A stretch of DNA of 64,000 nucleotides from Alphaproteobacteria bacterium (GTDB taxonomy: Bacteria; Pseudomonadota; Alphaproteobacteria; RF32; CAG-239), in NCBI GenBank assembly GCA_047975765.1, contig JBKEEF010000013.1:67727-131726 (forward strand). Reading direction: 5' to 3'. The notes under the pieces were generated by a model. It saw only the letters and a list, made by a program, of their open reading frames with translations, was not told the origin of the DNA and did not search any database. A program made the position numbers and the translations under genes. Positions within the stretch are counted from its first letter, which is position 1. Every line of letters starts with the position of its first letter. Below are positions 2,546-51,713 of the stretch, piece by piece.

Positions 2546-4321
2546 ATGGCAGATTTACAAAGGTTTATTGAAGAGCTTCGCAGCAAAATTTCCATTGCGG
2601 ATGTTGTTGGCGAAAAAGTCAAACTTTCCCGAAAAGGGCGAGAATATACTGGGCTATGTCCGTTTCATAATGAAAAAACACCTTCTTTTACAGTTAATGA
2701 GGCTAAAGGGTTTTATCACTGTTTTGGTTGTGGAGCACATGGAGATATTGTTAAATTTGAAATGGAGGCTAATCACCTTCCATTTATGGATGCTTTGCAA
2801 AAGCTTTCTCGTAAGGGTGGGGTGCCAATGCCTCAGTTTTCGCCTGAAAACAAAGAGGTTTCTGAAAAAAGAAAATCATACTATGATATTATGGAGTTGG
2901 CTGCTAAGTTTTTTGAAAAAAACTTGCGTCTGACAGGCGGAAAACAAGCCTTAGATTATCTTTATAATCGTGGTTTTGATGATGAAATTATCAATAAATT
3001 TAGAATGGGTTATGCGCCAAGCAACAATGGTTTGAAAGCTTTGCTTGCTTCTAAAGATGTGGCGGAAACAGATTTTATTGAACTTGGTTTGGCGGTAATT
3101 TCTGATAATGCTTCACGTCGAGTGTTCGACTTTTTTAGAGATAGAGTGATTATCCCAATTATGGATAAGCAAGGTAGAGTGATTGCTTTTGGTGGGAGAA
3201 TTATGGGTGACGGACAACCAAAGTATTTGAACTCGCCTGAAACACCTGTCTTTAATAAAAGAAAAACGCTCTATAATCTCCATAATGCACGAGATATGGG
3301 CTATGAAAAGAAACAATTGATTATCTGTGAAGGCTATATGGATGTGATTGCTTTGGACAAGTTTGGGTTTTCTAATGCAGTTGCACCGCTTGGAACCGCT
3401 TTGACAGAGGAACAAATTTTAGAAGCTTGGAAAGTTGCCCCAGAGCCAATTCTTTGCTTTGATGGAGATAGTGCTGGAGTGAGAGCAGGGATTAGATCAA
3501 TTGACAGGGCTTTACCAATCTTGAAACCAGGATATTCGCTTAAATATGCTTTTTTACCTGATAGACTTGATCCAGATGATTTTCTGAAAGCTCGTGGACA
3601 AGATGCATTTGAGAAAATTTTGACTGAAACGGAAACACTGACCAACCTTCTTTGGAAAAAGAATATGGATGATGTTGATGTTTCAACACCTGAACAAAAA
3701 GCTTTGTTTGAAAAAAATGTCAGAGAAGAAGTTGCAAAAATCAAAGATGACACGGTAAGAAACTATTATGCTCAAGAAATGAAGAAACGAATTTCTGATG
3801 CCTTTGGGGTTGTTTTGAATCGTAAAACAAGCTATAACTTCAAAAAAACAGAAAAAATCACTCGTCCAAGCATTGATGATAGAAGTTTGAATTTTGTCTT
3901 GGCTGCTATCGTATGTATGCCTAAGCTTATTGCCGTTTATGAAGAAAAAATTATGATGTTTGACATCAAGGATGAAGTGCTTAAAAAAATTATCCTAGAA
4001 GTTTTTGACGTTTATAATCACCGTTCAGATATTACGAGTGATGATTTATTATTGATTCTCAAAGATAAAGGTTTTGAAAAAAATCTTCAAGAAAATTGGG
4101 AAATTAGAATGTTGAAACAACAGCTTCCTACAGATTTGCAATTGATGGAAGATGTTGATGCAAAAATTTTGGAAGCTCAAGTAAAGTTTATTGACGGTGA
4201 AATTAGGGAATGTATGAGAATAATTCAAAATTCTGAAAGCTTTCCTGAAGAAGTCTTTGATAAGTTTGAGAGTTTAAAAAAAGAACGAGAATTGTTGTTT
4301 GTCAAAGAAGATGTTAACTGA
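2546..4321 (+). CDS. dnaG: DNA primase
   Basis: N-terminal zinc finger CPFHNEKTPSF...HCFGCGAHGD, a Toprim region (ICEGYMDVIAL...DGDSAG), and position upstream of rpoD. Confidence 0.92.
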   Translation: MADLQRFIEELRSKISIADVVGEKVKLSRKGREYTGLCPFHNEKTPSFTVNEAKGFYHCFGCGAHGDIVKFEMEANHLPFMDALQKLSRKGGVPMPQFSPENKEVSEKRKSYYDIMELAAKFFEKNLRLTGGKQALDYLYNRGFDDEIINKFRMGYAPSNNGLKALLASKDVAETDFIELGLAVISDNASRRVFDFFRDRVIIPIMDKQGRVIAFGGRIMGDGQPKYLNSPETPVFNKRKTLYNLHNARDMGYEKKQLIICEGYMDVIALDKFGFSNAVAPLGTALTEEQILEAWKVAPEPILCFDGDSAGVRAGIRSIDRALPILKPGYSLKYAFLPDRLDPDDFLKARGQDAFEKILTETETLTNLLWKKNMDDVDVSTPEQKALFEKNVREEVAKIKDDTVRNYYAQEMKKRISDAFGVVLNRKTSYNFKKTEKITRPSIDDRSLNFVLAAIVCMPKLIAVYEEKIMMFDIKDEVLKKIILEVFDVYNHRSDITSDDLLLILKDKGFEKNLQENWEIRMLKQQLPTDLQLMEDVDAKILEAQVKFIDGEIRECMRIIQNSESFPEEVFDKFESLKKERELLFVKEDVN

Positions 4322-4440
4322 TATTTAAAATTATTCGTTTAAGTTTAGGTCTAAGTATCTAAATGTTGATATTGACAAATGAAATATAAGTAACTAAATA
4401 GTCTTAGCTAGCTAAAAATATATACTTTTCAAGGAATGAC

Positions 4441-30037: not shown

Positions 30038-30114
30038 GGGGGTGTAGCTCAGTTGGTTAGAGTGCTTGCCTGTCACGCAAGAAGTCGCGGGTTCGAGCCC
30101 CGTCACTCCCGCCA
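30038..30114 (+). tRNA. tRNA-Asp (anticodon GTC)
   Basis: 77-nt cloverleaf folded by hand: GGGGGTG acceptor stem, anticodon loop CTGTCAC, T-loop TTCGAGC, encoded CCA. Confidence 0.9.
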
Positions 30115-30147: not shown

Positions 30148-31296
30148 TCATTCTGACTTTTTATTTTTCTCATTCTGACTTTTTACATATTCAACTAATT
30201 TATTTGTTGCAGTAAGTCCTATTTTTTCAGTTGGGCTTTTGTATGTGCTATTAAACATTTTTTCGCTTTCGTGACCTGTTATTACGATTGCAGCAGCACT
30301 TGTGACACCAGCTTCTATATATGCAGTGCTTCCAGAATGTCGCATTAGTCTGAAGGTATAGTTAAACCCTAGTTCTTGACAAACATTTCTAAAGTAATCT
30401 TGAAAACGTCTGACTGTGAAATCTCCAAAATCATCACAAATGATGAAATCTTTTTTAGATAATATTTCTCTTTCCAGATGTTTTGGTACAGGAAGAATTA
30501 CTTTCTTGCCTAGTCTTTCCATTTTGTTTTGAATTATGCTAAAGAAATAATGGCCATCTTTTTTGTAAAGGTCATCTTTTCTTAGTTTTAACACATCAGC
30601 TGGCCTTTGAGCAAAATATAAATCAAGTTCAGTTCCTAGCGCTATTGCTCTATATGCTTCCGCTTTGTTTTTATATTTTTCATCTTCAGCCATTTCTTTA
30701 GCTTTATTAATAATTGCATGAACATCTTCAATTGGAATATATAGTTTTTCTGGTTTTTTTCTTCTTATTCTCATATTCTCAAAAGGATTTTTCTTTGAAA
30801 GTCTTTCTTTTCTTAGTCCAAAATTGTATATTAACCTTAGAAAATCCATACAGTTTTTAGCCCATCTTTCTTTTATTTCTTCAACCAGATTTTCATATAG
30901 TTTATATGCGATGTCATAATTGAATAAATCTAAAGGAGTGTCGCTTAACATTACTCCTTTTTTGTTTTTCTTTTTTGAAAGAATTTTATAAGCATTTTCA
31001 TAATCTTTCTTTGTTCTTGCTGCTAAATCTTTGTAAAAACGGCTATCAATATATATTGTCCAGAGATAGGATAGAGATTTATTGATGATTAGATCTTTTT
31101 TGTTTCTAAATTCTTTAATCTCTTTATTTAGTTTTTCAGCTTTTGCGTATGCTTCCCACTTTCCAGAGCCAAGTGGAATTGACTTTCTTATTTCTAAACC
31201 TTCAGGAACAAGGCGAGCAGGCATAACGAAGTAATAAGATATTACTCCGTTAGCAAGTTTCTTTTCTTGAACATATTTAGGTTTATCTCTTTTCAT
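30148..31296 (-). CDS. int: tyrosine-type site-specific integrase
   Basis: 382 aa. The C-terminal catalytic region contains LMRHSGSTAYIEAGV and HESEKMFNSTY (R-H-R-Y type). Confidence 0.9.
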   Translation of the reverse strand: MKRDKPKYVQEKKLANGVISYYFVMPARLVPEGLEIRKSIPLGSGKWEAYAKAEKLNKEIKEFRNKKDLIINKSLSYLWTIYIDSRFYKDLAARTKKDYENAYKILSKKKNKKGVMLSDTPLDLFNYDIAYKLYENLVEEIKERWAKNCMDFLRLIYNFGLRKERLSKKNPFENMRIRRKKPEKLYIPIEDVHAIINKAKEMAEDEKYKNKAEAYRAIALGTELDLYFAQRPADVLKLRKDDLYKKDGHYFFSIIQNKMERLGKKVILPVPKHLEREILSKKDFIICDDFGDFTVRRFQDYFRNVCQELGFNYTFRLMRHSGSTAYIEAGVTSAAAIVITGHESEKMFNSTYKSPTEKIGLTATNKLVEYVKSQNEKNKKSE

Positions 31297-40168: not shown

Positions 40169-40645
40169 TTATTTTTTATCTTTATGAATTGATTTAGATT
40201 TTATTCTTGCTACCCCAGATATTACAGAAACAGTTGCTAAAATTGATAAGAGAACTTTTACAATCCAAGATTTATCTAAATAAATTGCATACGATGAGAG
40301 TAATAAAACTCCTATTACTATTATGAAACCCATTATTGTGCCAAATAAGCGATATTGGTTATCTTTCATTTGAAAAGTATGTGAAAAGTTTTGTTCTTTT
40401 TCTGCCATCGAAATAATTCTATCCATAGATCCTGGACATGCTTTTTCATAATCTGCTAATATTTCTGGTGGAGGTAATGGGCCTCTATGAATGGATTGAC
40501 TCGTCTGTTCAACTCTTACAGTCAACTTTGGGTCTTTACTTAAAGAATCAGCACCACTTAAAAGCCTTTTTTTATTATCTTCAATATTTTTCTTTTGAGT
40601 TATATTTGTCAAAACACTTTTATTTGTTTTTTTGTTCTTTTTCAT
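40169..40645 (-). CDS. membrane protein encoded downstream of cI (lysogeny operon moron)
   Basis: 158 aa. Basic N-terminus and two C-terminal transmembrane helices. Same strand as cI, upstream of the putative OL. Confidence 0.45.
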   Translation of the reverse strand: MKKNKKTNKSVLTNITQKKNIEDNKKRLLSGADSLSKDPKLTVRVEQTSQSIHRGPLPPPEILADYEKACPGSMDRIISMAEKEQNFSHTFQMKDNQYRLFGTIMGFIIVIGVLLLSSYAIYLDKSWIVKVLLSILATVSVISGVARIKSKSIHKDKK

Positions 40646-40929: not shown

Positions 40930-41607
40930 CTATAACTCTTTCATTTTGATTTGGTAATCAATCACCACAGCAGCGATATCATATTCTTTGTCGTCGGGGT
41001 GGAGAATGATATTGTTTATTGTTGGGTTGGTCGATTCGGCAACCAGAACAATTGTGTTGTTATCTGTTTTCATATATCTTTTGACAGTAGCTTCATATAG
41101 TCCGTCAGAGCTTTTTCGATATGCAATGATGTAGTCGCCATTTTCAATCTTGCCGTCATAATCATCTATGCAACAACATATAAGCGTTGTTTTTTCTGGC
41201 GGAAAGATTTTATTCATCGAATCGCCACGAACTCCTAGAGCGAAAATTCTTTTGTTTTTGAGGTTATCATTAACAGGATAATATACTTCTTCCCATTCAT
41301 CTTCAGGGAGTTGCGTCGCTTCATTCCATGCACCAGCTTGAACAAAACCGATTTTTGAAATTGTTGTTATTTGATTATTATTTTCATAGTCTAATTCTTT
41401 GGTAACACCTGATATATATTTTGTAAAGTTTTCTAAATTTATGTCTAAAAATTTAGCAAAAGAAACGATTTCTTTTTGCTGAATTTCCCTAATACCTTTA
41501 ATTATAGCACTTAAATGGGGTGGGGCAATGTTAACATAATTAGCTAATTCTTTTTGTGTTTTTCCAAGATCTTTCAATCTATCTTTTATAAACTCATATT
41601 TTGTCAT
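40930..41607 (-). CDS. cI: CI-like repressor (HTH_XRE plus S24 LexA-like peptidase)
   Basis: N-terminal HTH (KTQKELANYVNIAPPHLSAIIKG). C-terminal S24 with ALGVRGDSM and a Lys further downstream. Confidence 0.85.
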   Translation of the reverse strand: MTKYEFIKDRLKDLGKTQKELANYVNIAPPHLSAIIKGIREIQQKEIVSFAKFLDINLENFTKYISGVTKELDYENNNQITTISKIGFVQAGAWNEATQLPEDEWEEVYYPVNDNLKNKRIFALGVRGDSMNKIFPPEKTTLICCCIDDYDGKIENGDYIIAYRKSSDGLYEATVKRYMKTDNNTIVLVAESTNPTINNIILHPDDKEYDIAAVVIDYQIKMKEL

Positions 41608-43547: not shown

Positions 43548-43892
43548 GTGATGAGTGGGTATATTAAACTTCATAGAGGGCTTTTAGACTGGGAATGGTA
43601 TTCTGATATGAATTGTTTCAGATTATTCACTCATTTGCTCTTAAAAGCTTATAACGGAGAAGACGTGACTTATAATAATAACATAAGGAAAGGGCAGATA
43701 TTTATCTCTATAGCATGTCTTTCTCGTGAAACTGGATTGACTGTTAGCCAAACTAAAACAGCCCTTTCTAAGCTTATTAAAACGGGATTTTTAACTAAAA
43801 GTATTCAAAGAGGACATCAGTTGTTTTCAATTAATAACTATTTCTTTGAAGAAGAGTTTGTTTGTGGAGGTAAAAATGCAAGGGTGGATTAA
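43548..43892 (+). CDS. phage replisome-organizer N-terminal domain protein (short paralog)
   Basis: GYIKLHRGLLDWEWYSD N-terminal signature shared with the next gene. Lacks a C-terminal domain. Confidence 0.5.
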   Translation: MMSGYIKLHRGLLDWEWYSDMNCFRLFTHLLLKAYNGEDVTYNNNIRKGQIFISIACLSRETGLTVSQTKTALSKLIKTGFLTKSIQRGHQLFSINNYFFEEEFVCGGKNARVD

Positions 43893-44607
43893 GCTACATA
43901 GACGTCTTTTAGACTGGAGATGGATTAAAAATCCAAATGTTTTAAGTGTTTTTATACAACTTTTGTTAAGAGTTAATTTTGAAAAAGGTTACTTTGAAAG
44001 TATAGAAATTTCAAGGGGTTCACTTGTTACATCCCTCGAAACCCTAGCAAATTCAACCAACTTGAGTTTGCAACAAGTTAGGACAGCATTAAGTAAGCTA
44101 AAATCAACAGGCGAAATAACAACCGAATCAACAAACAAATTTACTGTTATAACTATTGTAAAATTTGATACTTACCAAGATGAGTATACAGAAAATAACA
44201 AACAAATTAACAAGCAATCTAACAATCAAATAACAAACGAGCAACAAACAAATAACAAACAAATAACAACAATAAAAGAAGAACAAGAATTTAAGAATGA
44301 AAGAATGAAAGAATTTAATTTAAATTATATGCCCGTTGCTGAAAATTTTGAAAAATCTAAATATTACTTTGAAGGTAAAATTATCAAATTAAATTCAAAA
44401 GATTTTTTAGACTGGGAAAAAGCATATCCTGAATTAAACCTTTATGCCGAATTGATGATGTACGACAAATGGCTTTCTGAAAATTCACCTGATGAAAAAA
44501 AATGGTTTCCAAGGGCTAGCAGATACTTGCTAAGCCAAAATGAATTGAGAAAAGAACAAAGAATTAAAACATCAAAAGAAACAGCAGAAGAGGAGTTTTA
44601 TTTATGA
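43876..44607 (+). CDS. phage replisome-organizer / replication initiation protein
   Basis: Start at the ATG at 43876 (GGAGG RBS). GWIKLHRRLLDWRWIKNPN N-terminal domain, then an N/Q-rich linker and a C-terminal domain. Confidence 0.6.
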   Translation: MQGWIKLHRRLLDWRWIKNPNVLSVFIQLLLRVNFEKGYFESIEISRGSLVTSLETLANSTNLSLQQVRTALSKLKSTGEITTESTNKFTVITIVKFDTYQDEYTENNKQINKQSNNQITNEQQTNNKQITTIKEEQEFKNERMKEFNLNYMPVAENFEKSKYYFEGKIIKLNSKDFLDWEKAYPELNLYAELMMYDKWLSENSPDEKKWFPRASRYLLSQNELRKEQRIKTSKETAEEEFYL

Positions 44608-45770: not shown

Positions 45771-45907
45771 CCAATGAATGAAAAAGCAATCGGAAAAATA
45801 AAAGAAAGATGGTATAAAAAATTATGGAAATGATACCGACCGACTACCGACTTTTAAGTTGAATTTTAATATTTTTTTATTTATGATTGCAAAAAAGGGA
45901 GATTGAT

Positions 45908-46876
45908 ATGTTTTGTGGAAAATGCGGAAAAGAGATTTCTGATGATGTTAAGTTTTGCCCCCATTGTGGAAAATCAACATCTAATGAAGCTATAAAACCT
46001 GTTTCAGAAAATAAAAAGGTTGAGTTTAAAGTGAGTAAAAAAGAACTTCCAAAAAATAAATTTGTTTGGTACTTATCCTTTGTTTTATTTCTTTTCGTTT
46101 ATACTTGTGTAAATAATATGGATAATCATAAAAACTCCACAAGTACACCTAAAGTTAGTTATTCAACAAAAGTGGATACTTCAAAAAAGGAAGATGTTAA
46201 AAAAGTTGAGGAAGAAGTTACAATAAAAGAAAATGTACCAGCAAGTGAAGATAATCAGATAGGTGCATTTATCATAAAAGAAGAGTATGAAAATATAAAA
46301 GAATATATTGGATGTAAAACAAAAAAAGAGCTTTCAAAAATAACAGATGCTTATAAAGGTAATATTGATAGATCTAATATTCCTTCTCTTTTAAATTCTA
46401 AAAGATGTATGTATATTGATAATAAAGAAGAAAATTATTATAAAATTCAGCTTTTAGAAAAAAATAAAGAAAATACAAGAATAAATAAAGTTAGATTAGT
46501 TCACTATGCAATTGATGATGTTGATTTATATGTTGATATCTATTTATCCTTAAAAGATATAGAGTTAAAAAGTAAATATGAAGTTTTCTCAGAAAAAATG
46601 AAGATTAAAGAGGAAAGTGAAAATAAAAATAAAATAGTTTATAATGATACGGCCTTTTATATTTGCACTACTATGAAAAATTGGAATGCTCTGTTTTTCT
46701 ATAGCAGCGGCACTCCTGAATTTAAGCGATTATTTAGTAGTGGAAAATGTATAAAAATAAGAAGTAAAACAAAACTTAAGAAATTATTTTATTTTGATGG
46801 TGCTTGGCAATATGAAGTTTTGGATGGTCCACATAAGGGTGAAAAATATTTTGGCACGAACATTGAAGATAAATAA
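45908..46876 (+). CDS. zinc-ribbon membrane protein
   Basis: Start at the ATG at 45908 (AAGGGAGA RBS). N-terminal CGKCG...CPHCG, one transmembrane helix, then a K-rich domain of about 250 aa. Confidence 0.5.
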   Translation: MFCGKCGKEISDDVKFCPHCGKSTSNEAIKPVSENKKVEFKVSKKELPKNKFVWYLSFVLFLFVYTCVNNMDNHKNSTSTPKVSYSTKVDTSKKEDVKKVEEEVTIKENVPASEDNQIGAFIIKEEYENIKEYIGCKTKKELSKITDAYKGNIDRSNIPSLLNSKRCMYIDNKEENYYKIQLLEKNKENTRINKVRLVHYAIDDVDLYVDIYLSLKDIELKSKYEVFSEKMKIKEESENKNKIVYNDTAFYICTTMKNWNALFFYSSGTPEFKRLFSSGKCIKIRSKTKLKKLFYFDGAWQYEVLDGPHKGEKYFGTNIEDK

Positions 46877-46932
46877 ATATTTTGTATAATTGTAGTAATA
46901 AATTAAAATAACAGTAAGGGAGAAAATTAATA

Positions 46933-47391
46933 ATGTCTAAAGAAATAGTCTATCTAAAAAAAGGTTTATCAAAAAATGAAGAAATATTAGGTGTGGCAGA
47001 GATACATTGGAGTTGCTATATCGTACCTAGTTTAATTTTGTTATTTTCTATTATTATTTTTCTTGGTGGGGGAAAAGATTCTTTTATACCAGGCTTATTG
47101 TTTTTATTTTGGTCTGTATTATCTTTTCTTTCCAGATATAAAACAGAATATGTGGTTACAAACAAAAGAGTTATCTCAAAAACAGGAATTATCACTGTTA
47201 AGACAAGAGAAATTAAAAATTCTCAAGTAGAATCGGTTTCTTTGGATCAGGGGGTTTTAGGAACTATTTTAGGATATGCGGATATTTCTTTTAGTGGAAC
47301 AGGAACAACAAAAGTTTCTTTTCAAGATATAAAAGATCCTGTGTTTATAAAATCTAAATTAGAAGAAATAATAGAAGGTAATAAAAAATAG
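46933..47391 (+). CDS. bacterial PH (bPH_2 / YdbT-like) domain membrane protein
   Basis: Two N-terminal transmembrane helices, then YKTEYVVTNKRVISKTGIITVKTREIKNSQVESV typical of bPH_2. Confidence 0.65.
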   Translation: MSKEIVYLKKGLSKNEEILGVAEIHWSCYIVPSLILLFSIIIFLGGGKDSFIPGLLFLFWSVLSFLSRYKTEYVVTNKRVISKTGIITVKTREIKNSQVESVSLDQGVLGTILGYADISFSGTGTTKVSFQDIKDPVFIKSKLEEIIEGNKK

Positions 47392-47690
47392 TATTAAAGA
47401 GAGCATCTAGCTCTCTTTTTTATTGACAGATAGTTTGTAATCTAATAATATTCTAAACAGAGCTAGAAACTCTGTAGTAAAGCGTAACGCACCCAAGACG
47501 AAAAGGTGTCTTTTGTATTTTAAATGAAATTCCACGTTTGCTCCGTGTGAGTGTCAAATTTATACATTTCATCTCTTTCTATGCTAGGAGTGCGAGGAAT
47601 ATATTGAATAACTCCGCACATCTTTGCTTGTGTTTCTAGCTCCTAGCACCTTACTATTTAAGGGAATCCTATAGAAAAGGAAGTAAAGAA

Positions 47691-48332: not shown

Positions 48333-48432
48333 AGTTATAAAGCCCCGAGAGATTGGGGCTTTACATTTTATGTAAATTATGCTACCTATGGTGTTAGATA
48401 TAACTTTCGTAAAATCTAACAGGAAAACAATA

Positions 48433-48846
48433 ATGGCTAATGTATATGATGTTGCTAAACACATTTTAGAGAAGATGGGTAAAGTTACAGGGATGAAACT
48501 CCAAAAGCTTTGTTATTACTCTCAAGCTTGGTCATTGGTTTGGGATGAAGAGCCTCTATTTTCTAACCCAATTAAAGCATGGAAATACGGTCCAGTTTGT
48601 CATGATCTATATAATTTGCACGATGGACAATTTATTGTTGAGATAAGTAAAGATCTTACTTCACGTTGTGAGAATAATCTCACAGAGAAACAAGTTGAGA
48701 CAATAGATGCTGTGATTAGAGATTATGGTGATTTCACTGCACAACAATTGAGCGACTTAACACATTCTGAGGATCCATGGAAAAATGCTAAACAGAATGA
48801 AATTATATCTGCTACAGCAATGCACGAGTTTTATAGCAGTTTATAG
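48433..48846 (+). CDS. Panacea-domain (DUF4065, COG3600 GepA/SocA-like) protein, putative PanA antitoxin
   Basis: VAKHILEKMGKVTGMKLQKLCYYSQAWSLVWDEEPLFSNPIKAWKYGPVCHDLY matches the DUF4065 core (KLQKLLYYAQ..W...G.PLF...AW..GPV). Confidence 0.65.
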   Translation: MANVYDVAKHILEKMGKVTGMKLQKLCYYSQAWSLVWDEEPLFSNPIKAWKYGPVCHDLYNLHDGQFIVEISKDLTSRCENNLTEKQVETIDAVIRDYGDFTAQQLSDLTHSEDPWKNAKQNEIISATAMHEFYSSL

Positions 48847-48861
48847 ATATAATGGTGTTGT

Positions 48862-49332
48862 ATGTCCAAGGTAAATAAGAAGGCTAAGGTTAATCGTTCT
48901 AATATAAAATCAAATACTAAAGTATCAAAAATAGGGTCTTTGGCAGATAATAATAGATTTAAGTGGGCTTTGAGAAGTGATATTGTTGACTGGGATTGGA
49001 GACATAATGATTTCAGTTTTGGAGATAAAATAAAAGATTTGCTTATCTTTTATAATAAAATAAAGCCAACTTTAGATAGCTATGCACAAATGACATGGGA
49101 CGAAGTAAATCTAAGAAAGCATTGCCATTCTTGGGACATTACCTATCTTCATAGTGATTTAATTAAAAGATTCAAAGACAGATTTAGGTCTGAGGAATGT
49201 TCAGAAACGCTTTATCAAATAAATATTAATCAAAAACATAGGATAATAGGCTTCAAAGAAGGCGAGGTTTTTTATATTATGTGGAATGACCCTAATCATA
49301 AGGCTTATATTACACAAAAAAAGAATACATAG
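48862..49332 (+). CDS. candidate toxin partner of the PanA-like gene (novel; RelE/YoeB-like C-terminal motif)
   Basis: 156 aa, basic N-terminus, C-terminal HRIIGFKEGEVFYIMWNDPNHKAY. Starts 16 bp after the PanA-like stop. Confidence 0.35.
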   Translation: MSKVNKKAKVNRSNIKSNTKVSKIGSLADNNRFKWALRSDIVDWDWRHNDFSFGDKIKDLLIFYNKIKPTLDSYAQMTWDEVNLRKHCHSWDITYLHSDLIKRFKDRFRSEECSETLYQININQKHRIIGFKEGEVFYIMWNDPNHKAYITQKKNT

Positions 49333-49473: not shown

Positions 49474-49549
49474 TGCGAGATGGAGAAGATGTTATCTCGT
49501 TCCGCTCATAACGGAAAAATCGTAGGTTCAAATCCTACTCTCGCAACCA
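49474..49549 (+). tRNA. phage-encoded tRNA with CAT anticodon (Met or Ile2)
   Basis: Manual cloverleaf: acceptor TGCGAGA/TCTCGCA, D-stem GAGA/TCTC, anticodon stem TTCCG/CGGAA with loop CTCATAA, T-arm GTAGG-TTCAAAT-CCTAC, discriminator A, encoded CCA. Only position 19 is atypical. Confidence 0.6.
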
Positions 49550-49645: not shown

Positions 49646-50164
49646 TTGACTGGCCTTCAAAACGAGAGCAAGAAAATGACAACAAAAACACAGAAGAAAG
49701 CGATAACTCCTAAACAGGAGATGTTTTGTCAAAATGTTGTTTCTGGAATGAATAATCTTGAAGCATATCGTGCCGTGTTTTCTAATAATCAATCGGATAA
49801 AACTGCAAGAAATAACGCATACAGACTTACGCAACTTGACCATATTAAAAATAGAATTGAAGAACTTAATAAAAAAATTGAAACGAAACTTATTAAAGAA
49901 CTAGCTTATTCTAAAGAAGAGAGTTTTAGGAACTTTGAAAAGGTTCAAGAGTTGGCACTTGAAAAAACATATTTTGACAAGCCTGCACCTGATTTGAATA
50001 ATTTTATCAAAGCTGAGGAGCTTAAAGGAAAGTTATTTGGACTTTATAATCTAGATAAATCTAATATACCAGCAGTAGATTTTAACATAAACTTAAAACA
50101 ATCTGTTTCCCAAGAAGATTTAGAAAAAATGACGGCCTTAATTATAAAGGAGATTAATGAATAA
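49646..50164 (+). CDS. terS: terminase small subunit
   Basis: KQEMFCQNVVSGMNNLEAYRAV...KTARNNAYRL is Terminase_2-like. Sits immediately upstream of terL. An alternative start is at 49676. Confidence 0.72.
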   Translation: MTGLQNESKKMTTKTQKKAITPKQEMFCQNVVSGMNNLEAYRAVFSNNQSDKTARNNAYRLTQLDHIKNRIEELNKKIETKLIKELAYSKEESFRNFEKVQELALEKTYFDKPAPDLNNFIKAEELKGKLFGLYNLDKSNIPAVDFNINLKQSVSQEDLEKMTALIIKEINE

Positions 50165-50177
50165 TAAGGAGTGAGTT

Positions 50178-51713
50178 ATGAATCCATTGTTGCTAGGTTC
50201 TTTCCTACTTAGTCAGCCATTTGAGATTTGGCTCAGATTCTTGTTTAAGAAAGTGGAAAGTCGTCCTTTTGTTGTTGAAAATGTACATAGGAGTATTTTT
50301 GAAACCTATGAAAACATTTTCAACATGAATGAAGATTACACATTCACAAATTTAAATCTTCCGCCCAGGTCTGGAAAAACTATTATTGCTGAATATTTTC
50401 TTATTTATTGTCTTCTAAAGGCTGCAATAAATAAAAAGGGAACAAATTGGATATATATATCATATTCAATTAAACTTTTGAAAGAAGTATCATCTGGTAT
50501 TAAAAATATTGTAGAATCACAGATATTTAAATTATTGTATGGAGATCAGTATTTCAATATTCATCAATCTGATATTGAATTTACAGATGATGCTTTCGAA
50601 GATTACTATAAATCAATTGGTGAAAGTAAAGAAGTTATTAAATTTTCATCAACAGATATTACGCTTGGTAGAAGCAGAATTGTTCTTTCTCCTCTTGGTG
50701 GGCAAATCACAGGATTTGGTGCTGGTGTTCGTGGTGGAGAAGACTATGTTAGCGGTGGTATATTCTTAGATGATATTAATAAAATTCAAGATACTGTACG
50801 GTCAGAACTTTTAAGAGAAAAAACAAGACAATATTTTTCAGGTGTTATTTTCTCAAGAAGAAACAATCCAAAAGTTTTAATTATGAACATTCAGCAACGT
50901 GTTCATATTGAAGATATGACGGGATATTTAGAAGATACATACAACTTCAAGACAATCAAAGCTCCTTTGATTGGGGAAACAGGAATATGTCAAATTCCAA
51001 GTCAGTATGACCAAAGAACTATAGATATGCTTAAAAAGGATAATTTTACTTTTCAGGCTCAATATCAACAAGATCCAATTCTCGAAGGTGGATATCTTAT
51101 TAAAACAGATTTTATTAAAAGATTTGAAGAACCTTTGGTGACCTATAAACAAATGTTTATTGTTTGCGATACAGCTTTTAGCGAGAAGAAGTCATCAGAT
51201 TTTTCCGTCTTTGGGTTGTTTGGAATAGATGAAAAAAATAATATTTGGCTTGTTGAAGGTTATTGTAAGAGAGTTTCATTTCCAGACTTGAAACGAGACT
51301 TAAGGAGTTTTTACCTTTCTGCAGTATATAAATTTGGTAAATATAACAATATAAGCACAATATATGTTGAAAATAAAGGCTCTGGAATAAGCTTAATTCA
51401 ACAGTTGAGGGAAGATGGACTACCAATAAAAGAGCTATCACCAACATATTATAATGCTGAGTTTAAGAAAGAAGAAGTTTCTGATAAATATACTAGGTTC
51501 TTAGAAATATCCGCTGACATAGAAAGCGGATATTTTTATATGCCTAGAGAAGCTCATTTTTTAATGGAACTTATTCGCCAATGTGAATCTTTTACAGGTG
51601 GTAAACAATCCTATCATGACGATTGGGTTGATGTGCTTATATATGCTTTAAAAATTAGAAGAAAAAATATTCAAGATATTGATTGGCAAAATTTCGGGAA
51701 CATATTTAGATGA
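50178..51713 (+). CDS. terL: terminase large subunit
   Basis: Walker A PPRSGKT. C-terminal RNaseH-like nuclease with CDTAFSEKKSSDFSVFGLFG. Confidence 0.88.
   Translation: MNPLLLGSFLLSQPFEIWLRFLFKKVESRPFVVENVHRSIFETYENIFNMNEDYTFTNLNLPPRSGKTIIAEYFLIYCLLKAAINKKGTNWIYISYSIKLLKEVSSGIKNIVESQIFKLLYGDQYFNIHQSDIEFTDDAFEDYYKSIGESKEVIKFSSTDITLGRSRIVLSPLGGQITGFGAGVRGGEDYVSGGIFLDDINKIQDTVRSELLREKTRQYFSGVIFSRRNNPKVLIMNIQQRVHIEDMTGYLEDTYNFKTIKAPLIGETGICQIPSQYDQRTIDMLKKDNFTFQAQYQQDPILEGGYLIKTDFIKRFEEPLVTYKQMFIVCDTAFSEKKSSDFSVFGLFGIDEKNNIWLVEGYCKRVSFPDLKRDLRSFYLSAVYKFGKYNNISTIYVENKGSGISLIQQLREDGLPIKELSPTYYNAEFKKEEVSDKYTRFLEISADIESGYFYMPREAHFLMELIRQCESFTGGKQSYHDDWVDVLIYALKIRRKNIQDIDWQNFGNIFR

Follow-up and report, generated by a model that had tools for sequence, protein, structure and literature searches.

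Small or bitopic proteins of the inner membrane or periplasm that exclude superinfecting phages are encoded by phages and prophages, with HK97 gp15, P22 SieA and T4 Imm/Sp as examples; the moron concept and inner-membrane exclusion proteins have been described together (PMC3594210; for exclusion analogues see also PMC10883804), and in HK97 the gene-15 moron, an autonomous unit, brings a promoter and a terminator of its own together with a deviant guanine plus cytosine (GC) content (PMC3594210). Membrane proteins with a bacterial PH (bPH) domain of the YdbS type (bPH_2, PF03703, formerly DUF304), such as YdbS of Bacillus subtilis and DdE of Enterococcus faecalis, have two transmembrane helices and one PH domain; the YdbT architecture comprises six transmembrane helices and three PH domains in ~490 amino acids (aa) (PMC8657885). 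The soluble PHb1/PHb2 proteins (PF08000; 3dcx, 3hsa, 3b77) form oligomeric rings and are also found in phage lysogeny modules (PMC2817789). Here we describe two adjacent genes, A and B, on the + strand of a 64,000-nt stretch of contig JBKEEF010000013.1 (metagenome-assembled Alphaproteobacteria bacterium, GCA_047975765.1), hereafter the window. The window carries a prophage, and the two genes lie between its replication module and its packaging module. The reading we favor, with a rough probability of 55%, is that A and B are a horizontally acquired, co-transcribed moron cassette of two independent envelope proteins and not a dedicated two-gene system. The cassette would be carried in the replication/packaging cargo slot of a temperate, myovirus-type prophage of a gut-type proteobacterium. 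Its genes and transcription signals are as follows:

45859–45887, + strand: sigma-70-like promoter candidate upstream of gene A, TTGAAT-17-TATGAT (9/12 positions)
45895–45901, + strand: Shine-Dalgarno sequence AAGGGAG, 6 nt before the gene A ATG (45908)
45908–46876, + strand: gene A, 322 aa, predicted bitopic inner-membrane protein (MFV0627026.1)
46863–46890, + strand: promoter-like candidate at the A–B spacer, TTGAAG-16-TATAAT (10/12 positions)
46916–46922, + strand: Shine-Dalgarno sequence AAGGGAG, 10 nt before the gene B ATG
46933–47391, + strand: gene B, 152 aa, predicted YdbS-type bPH_2 membrane protein (MFV0627027.1)
47396–47424, not strand-specific: bidirectional intrinsic terminator with a 9-bp stem (4 GC pairs) and a T-run, 5 nt past the gene B stop codon

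Judged from their reading frames, A and B are real genes and not chance open reading frames (ORFs), given that frames without a stop run for 322 and 152 codons in DNA of 26–28% GC and that both proteins have conserved homologs. The genes are separated by a 56-bp spacer, and a terminator search between them found none, with a strong terminator located past B. By these signals, A and B are a physical unit that would be co-transcribed and that bears the classical moron signature, based on a deviant low GC content (0.259 for the cassette, 0.258 for A and 0.279 for B, against 0.327 for the prophage and 0.29–0.37 for flanking genes) and a terminator of its own. The two promoter candidates belong to a region in which 18 promoter-like matches were found against 12 expected by shuffling, which is near the chance rate of such AT-rich DNA. 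Morons are also absent from related phages at the same position, and here one related phage (L026) is without A, two others (L014 and L018) are without B, and 80 relatives identified through the large terminase TerL are without both.

The distribution of the two genes across other loci carries the case for independence. Relatives of A share its C-terminal domain (hereafter the A-domain), and 16 loci of this family, from five of the six other sequence clusters, were examined for up to 8 kb on each side; a search for bPH_2 ORFs, run unfiltered and as permissively as E ≤ 1, found none (0/16). Reciprocally, an A-domain ORF was found at none of 66 IMG/VR loci with B relatives, which also have no separate zinc-ribbon membrane gene within two genes, and at none of nine metagenome loci of the closest B relatives, which likewise have no separate zinc-ribbon neighbor. 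Among the TerL-related phages, neither A nor B occurs within 8 kb of the terminase (0/80). Single phages show the same separation: L026, with a B relative of 48% identity, is the closest syntenic phage and has the same replication genes, the same anti-repressor-like gene and B, without A, and L014 and L018 have an A-domain gene (P0020 and P0021, respectively) in the same slot without a bPH_2 gene. Independence is also favored by the more distant B relatives that are solo genes amid housekeeping genes and by the conservation of the B domain in lytic Ackermannviridae. By these counts A and B would assort independently, the pair being a one-off rather than an evolutionary unit.

A first-pass annotation of the window had correctly placed two adjacent same-strand genes here, and had regarded them as non-replicative, non-structural cargo in a variable prophage slot, which agrees with the different cargo held by related phages and with a probable Panacea toxin–antitoxin pair nearby. 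It had also known of no described system with this composition, and PADLOC (PADLOC-DB 2.0) returned no family for either protein at E ≤ 0.1. Its proposal that the pair is a candidate two-gene defense or exclusion module is not supported, as the two genes were found together at none of the 16 A-family loci, the 75 B-family loci or the 80 related phages; a lack of co-occurrence elsewhere is an outcome that the annotation itself had named as refuting, although the small size of the A family qualifies it.

A true two-component exclusion or abortive-infection module, in which A would sense or block the phage and signal through its transmembrane helix and zinc ribbon to a PH ring of B acting on the membrane, is improbable in our judgment. 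Such a module would fit the shared strand, the short spacer without an intervening terminator, the one common terminator and the common low GC content, the predicted cytoplasmic location of both the zinc ribbon of A and the PH domain of B, and the position in a cargo hotspot beside the Panacea pair. Fusion proteins provide a further hint, as P0020 joins bPH_3, SHOCT and the A-domain, and two IMG/VR loci (L036 and L037) join a zinc ribbon to bPH_2 with two transmembrane helices. However, bPH_3 and bPH_2 are different Pfam families, and zinc ribbons and bPH-SHOCT are promiscuous modules (PMC3581485). The fusions, as far as their domain content goes, show that zinc ribbon, bPH and A-domain are compatible membrane-protein parts. 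The module is also opposed by the absence of the pair from all the loci above, by the occurrence of the A-domain or B singly at the same slot in related phages, by A relatives that have a signal peptide only and cannot signal to the cytoplasm, and by the blank PADLOC result.

The predicted anatomy of the A protein is:

45914–45967, + strand: zinc ribbon, predicted cytoplasmic, aa 3–20, CxxC-x10-CxxC (Pfam PF13240 and Cys positions)
46058–46117, + strand: single transmembrane helix, ~aa 51–70, probably N-in/C-out (hydropathy and K-rich N flank)
46118–46252, + strand: low-complexity linker rich in S/T/K/E, aa 71–115 (unconserved in the family alignment)
46253–46873, + strand: predicted periplasmic domain, aa 116–322, two tandem beta-alpha-alpha-beta4 repeats (HMMER, alignment and AlphaFold2)

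The ribbon matches Zn_Ribbon_1 (PF13240) at aa 2–22 (E 7e-9, 35.6 bits against a 25-bit cut-off), with C3, C6, C17 and C20 forming two CxxC knuckles. The N-in/C-out orientation of the helix is suggested by the positive-inside rule, with a K-rich flank before the helix (KKVEFKVSKKELPKN), and by the cytoplasmic zinc site. Beyond the ribbon and helix the protein is rich in lysine (16% K), in part because the gene has a GC content of 26%. The earlier description of A was accurate as to its single helix, since there is one hydrophobic segment at ~aa 51–70, and needed adjustment elsewhere: the zinc ribbon is present with a spacer of x10 (C3-x2-C6-x10-C17-x2-C20) rather than x14, and the large C-terminal domain is K-rich as described, although its folded part measures ~207 aa (aa 116–322) past a 45-aa linker, and not ~250 aa. 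A reading of A as an anti-sigma factor was also considered. Zinc-binding anti-sigma factors carry an HxxxCxxC motif; A has a plain ribbon, and some of its homologs are without a cytoplasmic part, and this reading was rejected.

Zinc-ribbon–transmembrane proteins (PF13240) that match this module of A most closely are abundant in gut Bacillota, although only the first 30–110 residues match and the ectodomain of A is unrelated to these proteins. A zinc-ribbon pattern search of genome contigs likewise gave N-terminal matches only, in Bacillota. The nearest matches to the zinc ribbon and helix of A (≤76% identity over 21–30 residues) are in metagenome-assembled genomes of gut Bacillota, not Proteobacteria, and the DnaD-like helicase loader of the prophage matches Bacillus phages (blastn). 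The Bacillota-like ribbon and the Bacillus-phage-like loader may reflect cross-phylum exchange of modules, or mere compositional convergence.

The C-terminal domain of A is rare. Out of ~15 billion proteins, with relatives counted as clusters at 90% identity, six further clusters were recovered, and the family comprises seven in all. Five relatives (27–31% identity, E 5.5e-20 to 2.8e-5) came from a HMMER search with aa 72–322 against 1.84 G cluster representatives, and a profile search with the six-sequence domain alignment added one, a close relative of P0022. Full-length A, as the query of a word-indexed search covering 5.8 G proteins, returned the self match only, a metagenome scan with a three-sequence A-domain alignment gave no match, and no match to the domain was found in Pfam, PHROGs, PADLOC or PDB sequence searches. 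By these sequence comparisons, the C-terminal domain of A is a new, rare, previously undescribed family.

The A-domain alignment has 16 invariant columns, including four cysteines (C136, C167, C253 and C281), and no invariant His, Asp or Glu; an enzyme function for A was rejected on the latter ground. AlphaFold2 modeling on the six-sequence alignment (predicted local distance difference test, pLDDT, 87.4) gave a beta-alpha-alpha-beta-beta-beta-beta pattern twice, and the two halves align to each other around a C-x-T ... C core (hhalign P 1e-4). In each repeat of the model, one Cys closes strand 1 and the other opens strand 2, with a helical hairpin between them, which suggests one disulfide per repeat. 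Foldseek searches of the model against PDB and BFVD gave no significant match (best E 0.017, TM-score ~0.2); the top PDB matches, all non-significant, are tandem SH3b modules of NlpC/P60 peptidases (3npf, 3pvq and 3h41; E ≥ 0.017, TM-score ~0.2), tandem SH3-like/Tudor modules and single SH3 domains. The model resembles SH3b modules in having a five-stranded small barrel per repeat and in its predicted extracytoplasmic location, and differs from those of NlpC/P60 proteins in the helical hairpin and Cys pair of each repeat and in having no catalytic domain attached. As modeled, the A-domain can be described as a pair of small SH3-like barrels into which a helical hairpin, closed by a putative disulfide, is inserted; no family assignment is implied.

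Relatives of A carry the same domain on different N-terminal parts:

P0021: cleavable-looking signal peptide only
P0019: SHOCT-like helix plus transmembrane helix
P0020: bPH_3 (E 2e-18) plus SHOCT plus transmembrane helix
P0022, P0023 and P0024: several transmembrane helices

These varied anchors, the diderm hosts (marked, among other evidence, by EptA beside P0019 and SecB in the phage of P0021) and the four invariant cysteines are the grounds for placing the A-domain in the periplasm. Because the anchors have been swapped among homologs, the periplasmic domain would be the working part and the zinc ribbon of A an interchangeable anchor. The family is confined to mobile elements, being found in prophage cargo slots or beside integrase or recombinase genes. 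P0020 (448 aa; bPH_3, SHOCT, transmembrane helix, A-domain) is encoded at L014 8001–9347, directly upstream of the small terminase gene TerS and with a pRha-type regulator on its other side, in a phage with the same head-gene set as the window. P0021, in phage L018, is flanked by Bro-N genes; Bro-N and a SocA/Panacea pair follow, with the terminase next, a gene order very similar to that of the window, and the L018 Panacea gene is paired with a 139-aa ORF in a manner analogous to the window pair. Directly before P0021 (L018 7163–7979) are two genes, one for a signal-peptide-bearing PLDc_2 (Nuc-like) protein and one for a 93-aa protein with two transmembrane helices; the former may be periplasmic nuclease cargo.

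The remaining loci raise the question of a different partner. P0019 is the second gene past a tyrosine integrase, P0023 adjoins a large serine recombinase, and each also adjoins a lipoprotein gene (247 and 304 aa, respectively; L010 7248–8969 and L023 8001–9984). The two lipoproteins are homologous to one another (blastp 3e-8 over ~159 aa) and not to the A-domain, and no lipoprotein gene of this type was found in the window. The combination of A-domain and lipoprotein may be the true conserved two-gene pairing of this family. With the candidate two-gene defense system dropped, the sharper hypotheses are that the A ectodomain acts alone and that the A-domain is paired with the lipoprotein.

The same slot invites a reading of A and B as lysis genes, in which the bitopic A would resemble an i-spanin or an antiholin and the small membrane protein B a holin. 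In lambda, S, R and Rz lie between the replication and packaging genes. The position of A–B corresponds to that of the lysis cassette of lambdoid phages; A is a predicted type-II membrane protein with periplasmic cysteines, and the two A homologs that adjoin lipoprotein genes are reminiscent of i-/o-spanin pairs. Several observations run counter to this. Pfam and PHROG scans matched no endolysin or holin gene near A–B, and the prophage part of the window has no lipobox ORF, as a two-component spanin would require; the lipoprotein-paired homologs lie beside integrases and not in lysis cassettes, and their lipoproteins are 247–304 aa long; P0021 is secreted and soluble; chromosomes carry B-family genes amid housekeeping genes; and A–B is closed by a terminator of its own. 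A lysis role for A–B is unlikely, and in the specific form of a spanin-like A with a holin-like B we regard it as very unlikely.

Gene B is, on present comparisons, an ordinary YdbS-like member of a known family, whose phage-borne members have no assigned function. Its Pfam bPH_2 (PF03703) match scores 50.8 bits (E 2e-13; cut-off 22 bits), and it also matches PHROG 3707, 'membrane-flanked domain' (phrog_3707), with E 1e-24. Its one further mapped feature interrupts the PH domain:

47008–47139, + strand: transmembrane helical hairpin of gene B after the first PH strand, aa 26–69 (AlphaFold2 and hydropathy)

In the AlphaFold2 model (pLDDT 86.6), a strand at aa 18–22 is followed by transmembrane helices at aa 26–45 and 47–69, six strands and a C-terminal helix. 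A PDB sequence-profile search for the B family came back empty; by structure, the best Foldseek matches in PDB are 3dcx and 3hsa (E 3e-4, probability 1.0), followed by 3b77 and numerous PH domains of eukaryotes. These PHb1/PHb2 structures match with TM-scores of 0.62–0.69 normalized to the target, although they are soluble and belong to a different Pfam family, whereas B has a transmembrane hairpin after strand 1. The short GGGKDS loop and the positive flanks suggest that both termini and the PH domain of B are cytoplasmic. In its length of ~150 aa, its two transmembrane helices, its single bPH_2 domain and its modeled PH fold, B is alike to YdbS and DdE, and the earlier description as a bPH protein with two transmembrane helices is borne out, with the architecture being that of YdbS and not, as then proposed, of YdbT.

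Relatives of B (n = 17, 32–55% identity) occur in varied settings. The closest are on short contigs, one beside a type IV secretion system coupling protein and another near a KAP NTPase, and more distant ones are solo genes amid metabolic or ribosomal genes. The domain is encoded by 279 isolate phage genomes, mostly of lytic Ackermannviridae, in which a bPH_2-type gene is conserved and adjoins dCMP deaminase (PMC3220722; PMC10892097). Bacterial PH proteins of the bPH_2 type with two transmembrane helices are common solo cargo of temperate and lytic phages alike. At L036 3803–4405 and L037 ~3809–4423 (IMG/VR), an N-terminal CxxC...CxxC ribbon is fused to bPH_2 with two transmembrane helices, so that, by domain annotation, zinc ribbon and bPH_2 do occur as one polypeptide at these loci. 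An apparent literature match to 'DUF304' in a paper on PSP was rejected because the text there reads DUF3046.

The family membership of B bears on another alternative, lysogenic conversion without phage defense, in which B would serve in peptide export or antimicrobial-peptide tolerance like YdbS/DdE, A would tether or reinforce peptidoglycan, and the two, jointly or singly, would give the lysogen a fitter envelope in the gut. YdbS/YdbT-like proteins are the only bPH_2 members with experimental phenotypes, DdE and DdF both being needed for EntDD14 export (PMC8657885), and the homologs LnqC/LnqD are linked to lacticin Q secretion and self-immunity, according to entries in the reference list of the same paper (PMC8657885). 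B homologs do occur solo in ordinary chromosomal contexts, and the weak fold matches of A point to the tandem SH3b modules with which NlpC/P60 proteins bind peptidoglycan. The characterized systems, however, are Gram-positive, require a YdbT-like partner and lie in bacteriocin clusters. B is in a Gram-negative prophage and has no adjacent YdbT-like gene, its neighbors being gene A and the anti-repressor-like gene; the ORF list and the Pfam/PHROG scans of neighbors show no ABC-transporter or bacteriocin-type cluster, with small ORFs not searched for bacteriocins. The SH3b resemblance is non-significant, moreover, and the A family is confined to mobile elements. We consider this alternative improbable.

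If A and B are instead independent envelope proteins of a moron cassette, as we favor, their individual roles can be sketched. A would display a cysteine-stapled, non-catalytic binding domain of tandem SH3-like repeats in the periplasm, hung by the 45-aa flexible linker from the zinc-ribbon and transmembrane anchor. There it would act on the lysogen envelope, and could bind peptidoglycan, another envelope component or a component of an incoming phage and thereby block the entry of superinfecting phages, as do HK97 gp15, P22 SieA or T4 Sp. Tentatively, and as one possibility that is far from assured, action on the lysogen envelope is the role that we would put first for A, and it could in this way block superinfecting phages; it is suggested by a periplasmic binding domain on a tether, by positions confined to cargo sites, and by the Panacea pair and, in L018, the secreted PLD-like protein alongside. 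B would place its PH domain, interrupted by the transmembrane hairpin, at the inner membrane on its cytoplasmic side, and would have a generic, membrane-associated role as a single gene carried by phages of many kinds; to judge from the solved bacterial PH domains, B probably assembles into an oligomeric ring. By analogy, a defense or exclusion role for A or B is plausible. The cassette shares its deviant GC content and its own terminator with the HK97 gene-15 moron. Neither sequence nor fold similarity to HK97 gp15, P22 SieA or T4 Imm/Sp was found, nor a PHROG or PADLOC match to exclusion families.

Several points weigh against independent cassette genes with an exclusion function in A. The A family is tiny (seven clusters at 90% identity), which limits the statistical power of absent co-occurrence. 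Co-transcription, the common low GC content and the fusion links (P0020; L036/L037) leave room for coupling between A and B. The lipoprotein neighbor is kept by two A homologs, so that the A-domain may normally need a partner, for which B could substitute. The A-domain has no functionally characterized homolog, the exclusion mechanism rests on analogy, and the fold matches are non-significant (best E 0.017, TM-score ~0.2).

A broader and more novel scheme can also be put forward. In this scheme, which we think distinctly improbable, the A ectodomain would define a new family of prophage and island periplasmic effectors, with disulfide-stapled tandem SH3-like repeats on interchangeable anchors, that block phage entry or remodel the envelope together with an element-specific second envelope partner: a lipoprotein in two elements, a fused bPH_3-SHOCT in one, and B here, where the zinc ribbon would dock on the PH ring to form a trans-membrane pair. 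Should the A-domain turn out to exclude phages or to bind the envelope, the few periplasm-acting prophage defenses would gain a new family, and the swappable anchors of the A-domain would offer an instructive case of modular design. What is novel at this locus is the rare periplasmic domain of A on a common anchor, and not a new defense system.

The prophage provides the setting for the cassette. A tRNA-Asp gene (30038–30114) abuts a tyrosine integrase gene (30148–31296, − strand), and this junction is the probable attachment site and left edge of the prophage, with the right edge past the end of the window. Next comes a leftward block with RecT/YqaJ/DUF1351 recombination genes, and a gene for a LexA-like S24/HTH repressor follows at 40930–41607 (− strand). 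The rightward DnaD-like helicase loader gene (43846–44607) is upstream of gene A, with two more early genes after it. Downstream of A–B are TerS/TerL (49646–51713), then portal and head genes and E217-like contractile-tail genes. The cargo at the A–B position varies among related phages. IMG/VR scans with either flanking protein alone (216 aa or 213 aa) gave no matches. As judged from the sequences, the host genes on the flanks are of proteobacterial type: RpoD scores 851 bits against PRK05658, and FtsX reaches 62.9 bits with the Gram-negative-type model TIGR00439, which is under its 255-bit cut-off.

Further observations concern the surroundings of the cassette. At 48379–49332 (+ strand), a SocA/Panacea antitoxin gene (155 aa, Pfam E 7e-23) is followed after 15 nt by a 156-aa ORF with a weak PADLOC match of the NsnC-like tail type (E 1.4e-5) and a match to phrog_8366; the two genes probably make up a PanA-type toxin–antitoxin pair in the same cargo slot as A–B. 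A search of Rfam over 45–50 kb gave a tRNA plus sub-threshold matches only. The tRNA is tRNA-Met (CAT) at 49474–49549 (+ strand), inside the prophage and just before the small terminase gene. Past the A–B terminator is a non-coding gap of ~300 bp (47430–47690, + strand) with a −35 box of consensus sequence, TTGACA, at 47423; the gap folds more stably than shuffled controls (z = −2.2) and includes a sub-threshold Rfam match to sRNA-Xcc1 at 47583–47655 (32.8 bits, with a gathering score of 53 bits). The gap could encode a leader or a small RNA that serves the anti-repressor-like gene. Beside the S24 repressor gene, the lysogeny module encodes a DUF2335 predicted membrane protein at 40169–40645 (− strand); this protein, too, is a candidate for expression from the prophage.

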